Below are positions 28,864 through 34,950 of a DNA stretch of 64,000 nt, in pieces. A program made the position numbers and the translations under genes. The notes beneath the pieces are model-generated. The model was not told the DNA's origin. It did not search any database and worked only from the letters and a program-made list of their open reading frames with translations. Source of the DNA: an uncultured archaeon (GTDB lineage: Archaea; Thermoproteota; Bathyarchaeia; Bathyarchaeales; Bathycorpusculaceae). The stretch covers positions 32,001 to 96,000 of the forward strand of contig CAWENF010000002.1 in the NCBI GenBank assembly GCA_963810275.1, given 5' to 3'. Positions within the stretch are counted from its first letter, which is position 1, and every line of letters begins with the position of its first letter.

Positions 28864-29082
28864 TTAGCCGTGTTTAGCGATGGCTGCTGTAATCGCCGCT
28901 CCAATTATGAGCATGATTAGAGCTGCACCCAATACAAGAAGCGGAATCTTAAAGACAGCTTCGGAGTGCAACACCGCCGTTGTTGGCAAACCGCCAAGGT
29001 AAGCTACAAGAAAAAACGCTGTGAAAACTGCGCCAACTGCTTCAATTACGTAGAGAAACGTGGTTAAGCGATTTTTGGCCAT
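28864..29082 (-). CDS. Small 2-TM membrane protein
   Basis: Two long hydrophobic stretches. Confidence 0.65.
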   Translation of the reverse strand: MAKNRLTTFLYVIEAVGAVFTAFFLVAYLGGLPTTAVLHSEAVFKIPLLVLGAALIMLIIGAAITAAIAKHG

Positions 29083-29227
29083 CTCCAAACTTTGTAACCC
29101 TTCTGCATTATTGGATTTGCAGGTTTTAGTATTTAATATTAACCGTCAAAATAGATCAGGGTACAGTCTGGTTACCACAAGCATAATATACAGTTTACCT
29201 CAAAGTAATTTTGTCGGCGGCGTAACT

Positions 29228-30151
29228 TTGGAGCAAAAAAGTCTTACCCCACTAAAAGTAGGCGTAGCCACAGCAGCAACTGCATATTTCCTTTTCACGC
29301 TTCACGCAATGTTCACGTTAGGCTGGATAGGAGAATGGGAAGGTTTACCGCCACCAATGGACTTCTGGATTTTCATAACTGATATCTCAGCAGGCATTTT
29401 TCTTGTTTTCCGCTTCATTGCAGGCATACTCGCCTTCACAGCCGTAGCTCTATACTTCACAAAAGGCTTATCTCAAAACACACTATACAAGTGGATAAGG
29501 GCAATTCTGGTTTTGGAAGCGCTCTACTGGATTGGCCTTTTACCGTCTGGAATCTGGGGTATCCTTTTTGGGGTAATGCCATACGGAACTTCGTTGCTTA
29601 TAACAACTGGAATACCATGTATGTTCTGCTCAGTAGCCATCCCTATATCCCTCTTCATGATAGCAGCTAAACTTAAACCCGAAAGGCCAGCACCGACAAA
29701 GTTGGTTTGGATTGCAGGCTTATTCTATATAATTGACTTTTGGTTAGTCAACATGGGCACATGGATCAACGTTGCATTCTTTTCAGGTAAAAGCGCAGAT
29801 TACCTTATCATCAACCCAGAGTATCTTTTCAGCTTCATCCTAACCATAGCAGGTTTGCTGTCACTTGCAATCTACACAGGTTATGCTGCAGTAAAATCGA
29901 AATGGCAACTAAAAACATGGCCAGCAGGAGTAATCCTTACCTCGCTTGGATTATATTACCTTTGGAACTATATGGCGTGGATTTTCTTTGGCGGTTGGAA
30001 CGACTGGTACGCATGGTTCCTTGGGCATAACCTTGACCTGTGGTTGCTGACACTTCCGCTGATTGGGTTGCCGCTGCTGTTCCAAAGCCAAAAGCAGCCT
30101 GCCCCAGAAGAACCTCCTTCGCCATTCGGCTCATTTGTAGCCACCGCCTAA
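29228..30151 (+). CDS. Polytopic membrane protein of unknown function
   Basis: About 8 hydrophobic segments, Trp-rich. Confidence 0.75.
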   Translation: MEQKSLTPLKVGVATAATAYFLFTLHAMFTLGWIGEWEGLPPPMDFWIFITDISAGIFLVFRFIAGILAFTAVALYFTKGLSQNTLYKWIRAILVLEALYWIGLLPSGIWGILFGVMPYGTSLLITTGIPCMFCSVAIPISLFMIAAKLKPERPAPTKLVWIAGLFYIIDFWLVNMGTWINVAFFSGKSADYLIINPEYLFSFILTIAGLLSLAIYTGYAAVKSKWQLKTWPAGVILTSLGLYYLWNYMAWIFFGGWNDWYAWFLGHNLDLWLLTLPLIGLPLLFQSQKQPAPEEPPSPFGSFVATA

Positions 30152-30240
30152 CCGCACAGTTGTTGTACACGTATGCCTCCGCATGTGATGACCACAAACA
30201 TAAAATTGTCAAACAGGCAAAGATGAAGGCGGTAAACACT

Positions 30241-30738
30241 ATGCCACAGTTTGCATTAAACTCAAACAGGATTGACCCTTACAAGAATTTTAGGTTTCGA
30301 GTGAAATGGGATGGAAAAGTGGTTGCGGGAGTCTCCAAGATGAGTCCACTTAAACGCACCACTGAAGTTATCACACACCGGGAAGGCGGCGATATAAATG
30401 TAGACCGCAAATCCCCCGGCAGAACCACGTTTGCACCTATCGTATTTGAGCGCGGCGTGACGCACGATCCCGAGTTTGAAGCTTGGGCAAACCTCGCTTT
30501 CAACAAAAGCTCGGAGTCGATGTCGCTTAGGAACTTCCGCAAAAATATAATCATCGAGTTGCTAAACGAAGCGGGCGCGGTTGCTATCGTCTATAAGGTT
30601 TACCGATGCTGGGTTAGCGAGTATAGTGCCCTGCCCGAGTTGAATGCAGGCGCAAACGCTGTAGCTATTCAGAGTATAACGATTGAGAATGAGGGTTGGG
30701 AGCGAGATACCTCTGTGGCTGAACCCCAAGAGACTTAG
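30241..30738 (+). CDS. Phage tail tube protein, T4 gp19 family (eCIS Afp1/Afp5-like)
   Basis: RIDPYKNFRFRV, HREGG, SPGRTTFAPIVFERGVT..FEAW, RKNIIIELLNEAG, CWVSEY, LNA..NAVAIQSITIENEGWERD. Confidence 0.9.
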   Translation: MPQFALNSNRIDPYKNFRFRVKWDGKVVAGVSKMSPLKRTTEVITHREGGDINVDRKSPGRTTFAPIVFERGVTHDPEFEAWANLAFNKSSESMSLRNFRKNIIIELLNEAGAVAIVYKVYRCWVSEYSALPELNAGANAVAIQSITIENEGWERDTSVAEPQET

Positions 30739-30749
30739 GGGAGACCTAA

Positions 30750-31451
30750 TTGTCGAATCAACCAAACAGCCATAAAGGAACTCTCGTACTTCTATCGACA
30801 ACCGCCAGCAACGCTAACGCCTTAGGCTCCAATACGTACTTTGTGTTCCAGTACAACCCAGAAAAACTCGTGCATACATTCAATCAAAACACGACTGTCC
30901 AAAATGAGCTGCAGGGGGAGTTTTTCAGCTTAAAATTTGACCTTGATAGTGTAGACTTTGACGAAGCAACACAAACCCAAATTACATCGCAGTTTGGGAT
31001 ACACCCTGCACTTGCTTTGCTGGAAGCAATGACGCAACAACAAAAGACAGGCAACCAAACACTTGAGCCCATCATTGTCTTCAACTGGGGCACAAAACGC
31101 TCCGTACCAGTCCACGTTGTAAATATGAACATTGAAGAGCAAAGTTTTGATACTGCGCTCAACCCGACAAGAGCAACAGTTAATCTAACACTAAAAGTTC
31201 TTGAGACTACAGAAGTAAGCGGCAACCCAGAAGCGAAAAAACTTTGTCAAGCGCACCAAACCACCCGAGCATCGCTGGTGGATGTTTACAAGTTGCAGAC
31301 TGGGCAAGGCAGATCCACAGTGGGAGTATCCCAAGGAGTTCCAGGCACTGCTGTTACCTCAGTAGGGAACTTGGCAAGTGTGTCGAACCTAAAAAGCACC
31401 GTATCCAAGGTCGAAACAGTCAAAACTATTAGATCCATTAAACGCCGTTAA
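30750..31451 (+). CDS. Contractile injection system tube-initiator-like protein (Afp7/CIS_tube-like)
   Basis: FQYNPEKL, GIHPALALLE, IVFNWG.KRSVPV...IEEQSFDTALNPTRATVNLTLKVL. Confidence 0.75.
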   Translation: MSNQPNSHKGTLVLLSTTASNANALGSNTYFVFQYNPEKLVHTFNQNTTVQNELQGEFFSLKFDLDSVDFDEATQTQITSQFGIHPALALLEAMTQQQKTGNQTLEPIIVFNWGTKRSVPVHVVNMNIEEQSFDTALNPTRATVNLTLKVLETTEVSGNPEAKKLCQAHQTTRASLVDVYKLQTGQGRSTVGVSQGVPGTAVTSVGNLASVSNLKSTVSKVETVKTIRSIKRR

Positions 31452-31467
31452 CCGGCGCTTCTTTTTT
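31443..31467 (+). terminator. Hairpin plus T-tract closing the tube operon
   Basis: CGCCG-TTAAC-CGGCG followed by CTTCTTTTTT. Confidence 0.55.
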
Positions 31468-31539
31468 GTAGGCACAGTGTGTAGCAACACAGCTTCATTA
31501 TTCTTGTCGGTATTATGTAGCTTAAGGAAGCTAAATTTT

Positions 31540-31662
31540 ATGATTCTAACTGAAGAGCCGCCCCCGAATCCGCCTCCAAACCCAGAGCCAGAACCTCAAC
31601 CGCAGCCTGAACCGCCAAATCCTACCCCAGTAGAGAATAACGAACAAAAGCACCTGGGATAG
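31540..31662 (+). CDS. Proline-rich microprotein (40 aa)
   Basis: MILTEEPPPNPPPNPEPEPQPQPEPPNPTPVENNEQKHLG; the proline codons are varied. Confidence 0.4.
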   Translation: MILTEEPPPNPPPNPEPEPQPQPEPPNPTPVENNEQKHLG

Positions 31663-31786
31663 TAGTCTCAAAACGCCGGATTGTTCTCAACAGCTGAACA
31701 TTTTAAGTTAAAAAAACAAAATCTAAACCAATCCCTAACTTTTGAAACTCTTATATACGTCGCCTGATAATCTGATTGTGAGATTC

Positions 31787-32095
31787 ATGGCTGAAGTTTG
31801 TTCAACATGCGGACTCCCAAAAGACCTATGCGTTTGTGGAGAAATCGAAAAAGAGCAACAGCGCATTCGCATACGCCTTGAAACCCGTAAATTCGGAAAA
31901 GCAACCACTATCATAGACGGAATGGACGACAAAAACCAGAACCTGCAAAGCGTCGCCCAGAAACTTAAAACCTATTGTGCATGTGGCGGAACCCATAAAA
32001 ACGGGCAAATCATGCTGCAAGGGGACCATCGCGACCGCGTCAAAGAGTTCCTCATCAAAGCAGGTTATCCACAGGAAAACATTGAACTCCAGTAA
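31787..32095 (+). CDS. sui1: Translation initiation factor aIF1 (SUI1)
   Basis: CSTCGLPKDLC.C, RKFGKATT, CACGGT, IMLQGDHR; TATA at about 31751. Confidence 0.95.
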   Translation: MAEVCSTCGLPKDLCVCGEIEKEQQRIRIRLETRKFGKATTIIDGMDDKNQNLQSVAQKLKTYCACGGTHKNGQIMLQGDHRDRVKEFLIKAGYPQENIELQ

Positions 32096-32133: not shown

Positions 32134-32409
32134 ATGAAAATAGATGGCTTACGCGACGTTTTCAAACACTCAAAACGTAGGCGACCAACCCAAATTTTTT
32201 GTCCCAGATGCTGTAGCCCAAAAATCGAGTTATCAAAAAACATAGGCAGCACCGAGATTTGGTTAACTCCTAAAGAGTACTATTGTGGCGAATGCGGGTA
32301 TCACGGAATAATCGTGATGGAGCTAGAACCTGAATCTGAAACGGAGAATGAAAAAATCGAAGCAGATTTAAGAAAAGAAAAGGAAAACAAAGAGGTAAAT
32401 AAGCCCTAA
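32134..32409 (+). CDS. Small zinc-ribbon protein
   Basis: CPRC...WLTP..Y.CGECGY.G. Confidence 0.75.
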   Translation: MKIDGLRDVFKHSKRRRPTQIFCPRCCSPKIELSKNIGSTEIWLTPKEYYCGECGYHGIIVMELEPESETENEKIEADLRKEKENKEVNKP

Positions 32410-33350
32410 TCGGGCAACTCTAAATTAAGCTGTTTTTTAAGCGTCTTGTAGCGATTTCGCACCGTAACCTCAGTAACACCAGCGGCTTCAGCAATATCTT
32501 TTTGTGTCTTCTTCTCGTTATTCTGCAAACACGCAATATAGAGCGCTGCTGCGGCTAAGCCCATGGGGTCTTTTCCGGCGGCTGCACGCTTGCGCCTTGC
32601 CTCTCTTAGGATGTTTATAGCTGCACCTTGGGTTTTGCCTGAAATGCCGGTTTTTTCTGCGATCTTTGACACATATGTCAGGGGATCAGCGATTGGCATA
32701 TGCACTTCCAATTCTCTTAAGAGTAGCCTGTAGCATCGAGCAACATCTTTTTTGTCAACTAAGCTTGCTTCAGCAATTTCTCGTAGTGTACGGGGTGTTC
32801 CAGATCCGCGGCAAGCAGCGTACAAGGAGGCTGCTGCGATAGCTGCAATTGATCGACCTCTGACTAGGCCTTTGTCAAGTGCCTTGCGGTAAACAACGGC
32901 TGCTTTTTCTTTTATTGGCGAAGGAATGTAGACTTTATCGCTCAGGCGATCTAGTTCCGCCATGGCTTGAGCCAAGTTGCGATCAATCGAGCTGTGAACG
33001 CGGCTTCTGATTTGCCATTTGCGTAGACGCCACATCTGCAACCTTGTGGATAAAGGAAGTTTTCTTCCGAAAGCATCTCTGTCGACTTGGCTGATGGCTG
33101 TGGATAAGCCTTTGTCGTGAACTGAGTAAGAGGTTGGAACACCGACACGGCTTCTGGAGGCTTTTTCTTCTTGGGTGAAAGCACGCCACTCAGGGCCTTT
33201 ATCCATCATCTGTTCGTAGAGGACTAAGCCGCAGTCACCGCAGACCGTTTCGCCTGTGTCATAATCGTGAACTAGGTTTACGCCGCCGCATTCGGGGCAT
33301 TTGTCAGCCTGACGTGTTGCTGTTTTCTGACCTTCTCTTTTTATGCTCAC
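32406..33350 (-). CDS. tfb: Transcription initiation factor TFB
   Basis: CPECG..CGDCG zinc ribbon, GPEWRAF, HDKGLST, two cyclin folds, AGVTEVTVRNRY. Confidence 0.98.
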   Translation of the reverse strand: MSIKREGQKTATRQADKCPECGGVNLVHDYDTGETVCGDCGLVLYEQMMDKGPEWRAFTQEEKASRSRVGVPTSYSVHDKGLSTAISQVDRDAFGRKLPLSTRLQMWRLRKWQIRSRVHSSIDRNLAQAMAELDRLSDKVYIPSPIKEKAAVVYRKALDKGLVRGRSIAAIAAASLYAACRGSGTPRTLREIAEASLVDKKDVARCYRLLLRELEVHMPIADPLTYVSKIAEKTGISGKTQGAAINILREARRKRAAAGKDPMGLAAAALYIACLQNNEKKTQKDIAEAAGVTEVTVRNRYKTLKKQLNLELPD

Positions 33351-34877: not shown

Positions 34878-34950
34878 AGCCCGTTGGTGTAGTGGTCAAG
34901 CATAGAGGCCTTTGGAGCCTTTGACGAGAGTTCGAATCTCTCACGGGCTA
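34878..34950 (+). tRNA. tRNA-Gln (TTG)
   Basis: Acceptor AGCCCGT/ACGGGCT, D arm GTGTAGTGGTCAAGCAT, anticodon loop CT-TTG-GA, T arm GAGAG-TTCGAAT-CTCTC. Confidence 0.95.

Follow-up and report, generated by a model that had tools for sequence, protein, structure and literature searches.

An orphan gene pair for a tail tube protein and a tube-initiator homologue in Bathyarchaeota, possibly a baseplate-independent remnant of a contractile injection system

The stretch of DNA analyzed here (the window, 64,000 nt in all, G000:C2:32001-96000) comes from the genome of an uncultured member of the Bathyarchaeota, G000, a 2.26-Mb assembly in 28 contigs which is 92.6% complete and 4.45% contaminated. It contains two adjacent genes related to contractile injection systems (CIS), both on the forward strand. 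Gene A (30241..30738, ATG start, TAG stop) codes for a gp19/Hcp-fold tail tube protein of 165 aa. Gene B (30750..31451, TTG start) codes for a tube-initiator-like protein of 233 aa. The 11-nt spacer between them (30739..30749, +), read directly from the sequence as 'gggagacctaa', has a purine-rich, Shine-Dalgarno-like GGGAG 5' of the TTG codon of gene B. A promoter-like box, CCACAAACATAAAATT, is found at 30192..30207 (+) and ends 33 nt 5' of the ATG of gene A; it resembles the B recognition element (BRE) and TATA box of archaeal promoters. Three parts may be distinguished in protein B: residues 1-155 (30750..31214, +), an initiator-type tube-fold domain by structural superposition; residues 160-183 (31227..31298, +), a single long helix in the secondary structure of the AlphaFold2 (AF2) model; and residues 187-233 (31308..31448, +), a low-complexity G/S/A/T linker with the basic tip KTIRSIKRR, most of it with a low predicted local distance difference test (pLDDT). 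The first-pass annotation, made from the sequence alone, had described a gp19-type tube gene, an 11-nt gap and an Afp7/CIS_tube-like gene ending in a basic tail (..KTIRSIKRR). This description stands: The tail is present in the sequence, the first gene is assigned by PF06841 and TIGR02241 and the second one by structure.

A terminator had also been placed after gene B. A terminator-like hairpin, CGCCG-TTAAC-CGGCG (31443-31457), followed by CTTCTTTTTT, does overlap the stop codon of gene B (31443..31467, +), but a scan for bacterial-type terminators finds two such sites in the region, compared to 2.5 +/- 1.6 in shuffled sequences. Since there is no enrichment, the hairpin and T-run are only a positional hint.

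Gene A codes for a gp19-type tail tube protein. It scores 141.9 bits with PF06841, Phage_T4_gp19 (E 1.4e-41, cut-off 28.2), and 142.4 bits with TIGR02241 (cut-off 62.4), and matches phrog_4542, 'tail tube', at 2.8e-21. By sequence, its closest solved relatives are Anabaena All3324 (7b5h/7b5i, 2.9e-13) and a 'phage tail protein' from AlgoCIS (7adz_1a, 3.4e-11), while Afp5 gives a weaker match (9.7e-4). In the AF2 model (pLDDT 72.1), residues 16-160 take the tube/Hcp beta-barrel fold, at Z 8.6-10.4. The extracellular CIS (eCIS) of the antifeeding prophage (AFP) and Photorhabdus virulence cassette (PVC) type have a main tube protein (Afp1/Pvc1), an adaptor ring (Afp5/Pvc5) and an initiator (Afp7/Pvc7). 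Protein A shares tube fold and family with them: Its model reaches Z values of 9.8-10.4 with the adaptor rings Afp5/Pvc5, 8.6-9.1 with the main tubes Pvc1/Afp1 and 8.5-9.7 with Hcp. The NCBIfam scores are also nearly equal, 58 bits for CIS1_fam and 56 bits for CIS5_fam.

Gene B codes for a tube-initiator homologue. Its match to PF19266, CIS_tube, reaches 24.9 bits (E 1.9e-5), which is under the 27-bit cut-off, and no matches were found in NCBIfam or PHROG. The same family is present in 32 of 42 close homologues of B and in 58 of the 68 family representatives sampled. A profile of B retrieves 980 representatives at E<=1e-3. Among the contigs searched, its only non-archaeal matches, with 30-31% identity, are two loci from Elioraea (Alphaproteobacteria; L074, L075).

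The AF2 model of B (pLDDT 68.9 overall) aligns best with tube initiators. VIA-align gives Z values of 12.0 for 6j0n_b, 11.5 for 6rao_G, 11.2 for 9qgl_7A (the PlPVC1 initiator chain), 10.9 for 9gtp_M, 10.8 for 7aeb_M and 10.7 for 7b5h_AK; 6rbk_A also belongs to this group of solved initiator chains (Z 10.7-12.0). They are the initiators of PVC, AFP, AlgoCIS, Streptomyces CIS and Anabaena CIS. Residues 1 to about 155 of the model map onto residues 4 to about 160 of these chains, which are 223-232 aa long, and the best superpositions are on those of about 224 aa. The Foldseek E values with the initiator chains range from 4e-5 to 4e-4, and all nine Foldseek matches at E<=0.001 correspond to CIS or cyanophage baseplate chains of 223-281 residues. 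A T4 baseplate-tube chain, 5iv5_BE, is also found among the structural matches (Z 9.1). When the profile and structure searches proposed in the first-pass annotation are carried out, A is thus above the cut-off of PF06841, and B is below that of PF19266 yet is modelled with an initiator fold.

The rest of protein B, residues 156-233, is modelled as the helix 160-183, about 40 disordered G/S/A/T-rich residues and a short basic tip. The helix ends in a conserved Y180/Q183/Q186 motif. The pLDDT is about 30 for residues 189-225, followed by a weak strand at 225-231. Length and sequence of this tail vary among 36 homologues; in most of them it is Lys-rich near the end. In Pvc7, on the other hand, the tube initiator has a C-terminal LysM-like domain, which binds Pvc12 and Pvc4 and connects the initiator with both wedge and sheath initiator of the PVC, according to the PlPVC1 paper (PMC12546770). 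The model of B has a helix and a disordered basic tail in its place. No LysM family was detected in B at E<=1, and the superpositions align no part of residues 156-233 with the C-terminal region of the solved chains. The LysM family of Pfam is absent from all 68 sampled members of the B family and from the CIS_tube protein of G016, a genome of the same genus. A complex prediction for A with B, each given as an alignment and run without controls, scored 0.05 and 0.01 versus a mark of 0.32, values which count neither way on binding. The view of the first-pass annotation that tube and initiator are all that is needed to nucleate a hollow filament is thus still an inference.

The pair is intact and appears to be alone in its genome. 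The family searches of G000 itself gave no match for sheath (PF04984, PF17482), gp25 (PF04965), Baseplate_J (PF04865) or PAAR (PF05488). For the spike OB family (PF04717), the genus-wide search found nothing in G000, and the spike protein of G016 used as a query did not match either. No Pvc16/Afp16 cap (PF14065) appeared in the search of G000, in which the controls gave no match; the same model detects Pvc16_N in 42 of the 120 genomes of the genus, G000 not among them. A single PF06841 gene (A) and a single PF19266 gene (B) are found. We also used 15 CIS proteins of other members of the genus as tblastn queries on G000, namely five sheaths, three tubes, a spike, an eCIS_core protein, a T4_baseplate-like protein, a CIS_tube protein, a fusion of a tube initiator with an AAA ATPase, and two proteins which have no Pfam family. 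The only matches are A, B and generic AAA genes; the latter (27-28% identity, contigs C22 and C15) correspond to the AAA half of the fusion protein, which comes from G121. The first-pass annotation had described the pair as an orphan, to be abandoned if a complete CIS appeared elsewhere in the genome: None was found.

Gene B is found (E<1e-50) in 22 of the 120 genomes of this Bathyarchaeota genus, G000 included. We examined 21 pair loci, leaving out G081, where the pair is split over contig ends. In each of the 21, genes A and B lie side by side in the same orientation; the loci represent at least five different neighbourhoods. The A proteins of 19 other loci are 74-85% identical to A. The spacer has a length of 8-24 nt in 20 loci; the exception is G093 (L044), with 67 nt. 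There, a premature TGA shortens A to 150 aa, and a remnant of the last 15 codons may still be read in the spacer; it is the sole damaged A among the 21 loci. Gene A starts with ATG in 19 of the 21 loci. The start codon of gene B is TTG in 16 loci and GTG in one (probably three); none has ATG at the aligned N-terminus. As far as start codons may be taken as a guide, ATG for A and TTG for B would fit a major and a minor component.

The box CCRYAA..TAATAAG ends 32-36 nt 5' of the start of gene A in 19 of the 21 loci, and the other two have near misses. Its position does not depend on which genes flank the pair. The pattern was defined post hoc; its background rate is 18 matches in 4.5 Mb (G000, both strands). 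On the 3' side of the stop codon of B, T-rich runs are found in about half of the 21 loci, as judged by eye.

Both genes are under strong purifying selection. The ratio of non-synonymous to synonymous rates (dN/dS), from pairwise Nei-Gojobori (NG86) estimates, has a median of 0.067 in A, where 158 of 190 pairs could be used, and of 0.160 in B, where 125 of 210 could; dS is saturated, so the values are rough but clearly low. By parsimony, the branch leading to G000 has 30 synonymous and 14 non-synonymous changes in A, and 38 of each in B. On the sister branches, the synonymous/non-synonymous counts are 25/7 (G014) and 37/7 (G096) for A, and 35/23 (G014) and 25/20 (G096) for B. Selection on the G000 branch is still purifying, perhaps slightly relaxed. 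The pair is not decaying. Absence from relatives, with relaxed selection, had been named in the first-pass annotation as grounds for dropping its interpretation, and this is not the pattern shown by the 22 genomes and the median dN/dS values.

Other CIS parts hardly coincide with the pair, except the sheath. Baseplate_J is found in 8 of the 120 genomes and in none of the 22 pair holders. The spike OB family is present in 15 genomes, including one holder (G128, on another contig), and gp25 in 13, including one marginal case among the holders (G106, a 94-aa frame with 29.9 bits). Two holders (G046, G120) are among the 42 genomes with Pvc16_N. The suggestion in the first-pass annotation that the pair might be a satellite tube for a CIS encoded elsewhere finds no support in these counts, and no resident CIS was found in G000. 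Sheath genes are found in 47 of the 120 genomes. A full-length lone one-domain sheath gene, located elsewhere in the genome, is present in 15 of the 22 holders, and G106 has an 88-aa fragment. Six holders have no sheath: G000, G007, G054, G082 (61% complete), G120 and G128. The term 'sheath-less' therefore applies to a minority which includes G000, and the idea of a domesticated sheath-less tube, also put forward in the first-pass annotation, may apply to G000 but not to those 15 holders. Holders usually have sheath and pair dispersed over the genome and no baseplate to go with these three parts, and G000 is a sheath-minus case. These genomes are related and not independent, so we make no statistical claim on the co-occurrence of pair and sheath.

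Four of the lone sheaths, of 357-360 aa, are found near a NUDIX gene, among housekeeping genes. In G014 (L027:9421-10497) and G096 (L029:9604-10686) they lie directly beside it; in G001 (L028:9370-10443) and G010 (L031:9443-10522) other ORFs (open reading frames) are found between both genes. All four are intact and 58-75% identical to each other, with dN/dS values of 0.09-0.16 where dS may be estimated. G014 and G096 have the sheath at a great distance from the pair; in G001 and G010 it is found on a separate contig. In G000, a NadA-like gene comes directly after the NUDIX gene (C10:53510-53956; the site covers C10:53510-54101), in the interior of a contig of 65.6 kb. The site is intact and empty, so the sheath is missing at its usual place and was not lost at a contig end. 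A promoter motif common to the pair and the lone sheath genes was also considered and discarded, as none was found in the four sheath genes inspected.

The closest relatives of A outside the pairs belong to fuller loci, which have a sheath, a Pvc16 cap, an AAA ATPase and eCIS_core proteins. The tube of G016 is 54% identical to A, and its locus contains CIS_tube, spike OB, eCIS_core, sheath, tube and a T4_baseplate/DUF6760 protein. The tube of G006 is 65% identical. A third one, 64% identical, is found in an IMG/VR contig (L076, 96-12722), which contains a canonical eCIS flanked by an integrase: a 774-aa sheath, the tube, T4_baseplate/DUF6760, Pvc16, an AAA ATPase and two eCIS_core proteins. 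This contig is filed as viral, yet neither capsid nor terminase is present among the nine ORFs scanned. In total, 11 loci with A-type genes are found in viral contigs, and L076 is the one annotated; for B-type genes there are 82 pattern matches in viral contigs, none of them confirmed. Damaged tubes are also found. In G023, an ORF directly after feoB (L021:5036-5563) matches the tube family only in its C-terminal residues, about 100 of them, and is likely to be a decayed tube fragment. Tube matches with internal stops occur in G105, G124, G051 and G117.

In a quick maximum likelihood tree of 31 tubes, those from pairs, full loci and AAA fusions form one clade, with a support of 99 in the Shimodaira-Hasegawa-like approximate likelihood ratio test (SH-aLRT), and tubes of about 150 aa are placed apart. 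The tubes from full CIS loci and AAA fusions nest beside the pair tubes of G000, G014, G096, G007 and G084. The outgroup branch is long (1.16) and makes the root unreliable, so no conclusion is drawn on the ancestral form. Loci which share a neighbourhood group together in the tree, which fits vertical descent with rearrangement.

Other small modules are found in the genus. Like the A-B pair, these arrangements have no baseplate; unlike it, they have a different end protein (a cap or an ATPase fusion) and a tube from a different clade. A second orphan pair, in which a PF06841 tube of about 150 aa lies directly beside a Pvc16_N cap/terminator protein of about 195-205 aa, is found in 12 genomes: G079, G068, G126, G113, G110, G125, G103, G132, G008 (L025:9460-10534), G118, G060 and G080. 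Eleven of them have a sheath elsewhere; none has B or Baseplate_J. In four other genomes, G121 (L045:8094-11105), G114, G092 and G105 (L047, L048, L049), the tube is followed by a fusion of 382-391 aa between a B-like protein and an AAA ATPase. In the G121 fusion, Pfam detects CIS_tube in the N-terminal half, which is 35-39% identical to B, and an AAA ATPase in the C-terminal half. Pfam detects only the AAA half in G114, where the search with B shows the B-like half, and in G092 and G105 the B-like half is known from that search alone. A one-domain sheath of 382 aa is divergently adjacent to the tube and fusion genes in G121 and G105. Finally, G012, which also holds an A-B pair, has a 382-aa sheath paired with a 150-aa tube (L023:10101-11698), located between PQQ/Ig-like repeat proteins of 864-976 aa.

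The reading we favour, to which we would give an even chance of being right, is that A and B form a domesticated, baseplate-independent eCIS remnant: a self-contained two-gene operon kept by the host lineage, whose presumed source is an eCIS of the kind which is still complete in some members of the same genus. The lineage has probably found a new use for what were once the tube and starter ring of a phage-tail-like injection machine. Protein B, whose conserved TTG start would keep its amount low, would form a hexameric ring, and this ring would seed or cap one end of stacked hexamers of A, which would be made in larger amounts from the ATG start. The product would be a hollow tube with no spike. 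The flexible linker and basic tip of B may stand in for the baseplate anchor, fastening that end to some other partner, for example membrane, envelope or nucleic acid. The lone one-domain sheath which most holders encode elsewhere probably wraps the tube; in G000, where the sheath would have been lost, the tube would be bare.

Several points weigh against this proposal. Known systems start tube polymerization on a complete baseplate hub. A search for RNA runs which contain the locus gave none. In G000, B is below the Pfam cut-off, and the low confidence of its C-terminal model (pLDDT about 30 for residues 189-225) means that a degenerate LysM-like fold may be present there. The lack of a detectable LysM domain may characterize the lineage itself and be unrelated to baseplate loss, since it extends to the 68 family members sampled and to the CIS_tube protein of G016. 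As A ties with Afp5/Pvc5 by structure, and CIS1_fam with CIS5_fam by score, A and B might form only a two-ring stub. The four lone sheath genes share an upstream box unlike that of the pair, and there is no sign of co-regulation. The non-synonymous share for A on the G000 branch is about twice that of its sisters, a weak hint of relaxation. Finally, with 92.6% completeness and 4.45% contamination, the genome may contain undetected CIS genes.

The tie between tubes and adaptor rings is the basis of an unlikely alternative: Proteins A and B would make a ring and not a filament, either Hcp-like hexameric rings or a two-ring A6-B6 stub comparable to Afp5-Afp7, which might act as chaperone, carrier or pore plug. 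The A model matches the Afp5/Pvc5 adaptors and free Hcp rings as well as it matches main tubes, within 1-2 Z units, CIS1_fam and CIS5_fam score it alike, and the order of a tube-like gene followed by an initiator presumably recalls afp5-(afp6)-afp7. By sequence, however, A is closest to chains which recur in sheath-tube entries (All3324, 7adz_1a of AlgoCIS), and Afp5 only reaches 9.7e-4. The fuller loci in the genus have a single PF06841 gene, a close relative of A, directly after the sheath gene, which is the place of the main tube. Besides, a sheath gene has been retained in 15 of the 22 holders, and a sheath requires a long tube inside it. We consider it equally improbable that A and B work in trans on foreign tails or CIS particles, as a spare part or decoy: The beneficiary might be a visitor present only at times, either a mobile, integrase-flanked eCIS or a myovirus; or the pair might be a defence which poisons the tail assembly of an invader by seeding tubes away from the baseplate. 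Complete eCIS loci with tubes 54-65% identical to A do circulate in the genus, one of them integrase-flanked (in IMG/VR), a B protein whose model has no baseplate anchor is what a dominant-negative initiator is expected to look like, and the pair is found in at least five neighbourhoods with its own promoter. Nevertheless, holders and complete CIS loci hardly overlap (Baseplate_J in 0 of 22, spike OB in 1 of 22), no B-type gene is confirmed in viral contigs, the grouping of loci by neighbourhood in the A tree fits vertical descent and not mobility, and the genes which adjoin the pair in this window include none of the defence-island kind.

A poorer candidate is a remnant on its way out, the leftover of a degraded eCIS locus which has had no function in G000 since the sheath was lost. 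The closest relatives, G014 and G096, carry the sheath which G000 lacks, the G000 branch has a somewhat higher non-synonymous share, and decayed CIS fragments do exist in the genus, for example the truncated tube beside FeoB in G023. Against this, neither reading frame is interrupted, conservation extends to promoter box, spacer and TTG start, and the G000 branch is still purifying for A (30 synonymous versus 14 non-synonymous changes). The five other sheath-less holders also keep intact pairs, four of them with short terminal branches in the A tree (the exception is G120). Finally, we regard as very improbable that G000 has a complete CIS whose other genes are unassembled or too divergent to be detected. 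The assembly is in 28 contigs and 92.6% complete, and CIS genes are sometimes dispersed in this genus, as the sheaths of G014 and G096, far from the pair, and those of G001 and G010, on another contig, show. However, seven family searches and the 15 protein queries derived from the genus found none of the other parts in G000, these parts are picked up by the same models elsewhere in the genus, and no Baseplate_J, spike OB, gp25 or Pvc16_N is found either in G014 and G084, two holders assembled as a single contig.

A domesticated remnant which assembles with no baseplate would depart from known systems in several respects. To our knowledge, every contractile tail-like system studied so far builds its tube and sheath on a baseplate hub. 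Compared to the eCIS of the AFP/PVC type, our search of G000 found no sheath, wedge (gp25, Baseplate_J), spike, PAAR or cap, and the pairs, which have their own promoter-like box, are scattered among housekeeping genes. Unlike Afp7 and Pvc7, whose neighbours are spike and baseplate genes, B lies next to aIF1 and TFB (transcription factor B), and no spike or baseplate genes were found in the genome. As regards phage T4, A matches the Pfam family named after gp19, and the structural matches of B include T4 baseplate-tube chains. The locus is, on the other hand, not a viral one: In the window, the surroundings of the pair show no gene for a capsid, terminase, baseplate or sheath. Orphan hcp genes of type VI secretion systems (T6SS), which lie outside the main T6SS cluster, are comparable in their location and in their fold (Z 8.5-9.7 for A with Hcp), but they serve a complete T6SS elsewhere in the genome, and no such machine was found in G000. 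Anabaena provides, with All3324, the best solved relative of A by sequence. The CIS of Anabaena and Streptomyces differ from this module in keeping a full baseplate, spike and sheath (entries 9gtp, 7b5h). Both Streptomyces CIS-Sc and the thylakoid-anchored CIS of Anabaena act inside the producer cell and are not released, as indicated in the corresponding papers (PMC12237407, PMC10286715, PMC8894136), so they are precedents for an intracellular role. In the PlPVC1 paper, one passage equates Pvc7, Pvc5 and Pvc1 with T4 gp48, gp54 and gp19 (PMC12546770).

We may also propose, more tentatively, a wider reading: The genus as a whole would have minimal sheath-tube machines, dispersed in the chromosome and lacking a baseplate, in each of which a lone one-domain sheath would join a tube and just one end-binding protein. 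They would come in at least two interchangeable flavours, tube with an anchor-less initiator or tube with a Pvc16-like cap, and would be host-domesticated intracellular filaments or conduits, derived from phage tails and assembled with no baseplate. G000 would then be a natural sheath-minus variant whose tube operon is still under selection. A baseplate-free pair under purifying selection in about twenty species means either that assembly and work are independent of a baseplate or that the pair has a different job altogether. Either outcome would widen the known recruitment of phage-tail parts, in an abundant lineage of uncultured archaea, and the module is a simple one: two small genes, with an optional sheath gene from a sister genome. 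We have found no description of orphan tube-initiator pairs or baseplate-less CIS remnants in Bathyarchaeota in the literature, although the supplementary tables of eCIS surveys may list incomplete loci. A one-domain sheath homologue in a Bathyarchaeota assembly is mentioned in a passage of PMC9230969.

As the first-pass annotation indicated, the pair lies between a membrane protein gene and the aIF1 and TFB genes. No integrase or tRNA adjoins it in the window, where the closest tRNA is at 34878, and the base composition of the locus is unremarkable. The membrane protein (29060-30151, +), directly upstream of gene A, is multi-pass and has no Pfam match. As the protein has 305-311 aa in relatives, its true start is probably located downstream of the GTG at 29060. 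A homologue adjoins the pair only in G096, G007 and G084, and is found nearby in G054; the upstream side of the pair is common to G014, G096, G007 and G084. We have therefore rejected this gene as a member of the module: It looks like synteny inside one subclade and not like a fixed partner. A 74-aa hydrophobic ORF at 28864-29088, on the reverse strand, adjoins the membrane protein gene.

Downstream of the pair are SUI1/aIF1 (31742-32095) and TFB (32406-33350, reverse strand). Whether the pair is conserved near these genes in related genomes was a question of the first-pass annotation, and the answer is negative: This side is common only to G096 among the 20 other loci. A small ORF between B and aIF1 (31477-31662, +), with a Pro/Glu/Asn-rich repeat (..PPPNPPPNPEPEPQPQPEPPNP..), was considered as part of the module and rejected: It has no counterpart in the 20 other pair loci and is probably not a gene. 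Between aIF1 and TFB there is an ORF of 91 aa (32134-32409, +) with two CxxC pairs, zinc-ribbon-like and lacking a Pfam match, which is found in the same place in G096.

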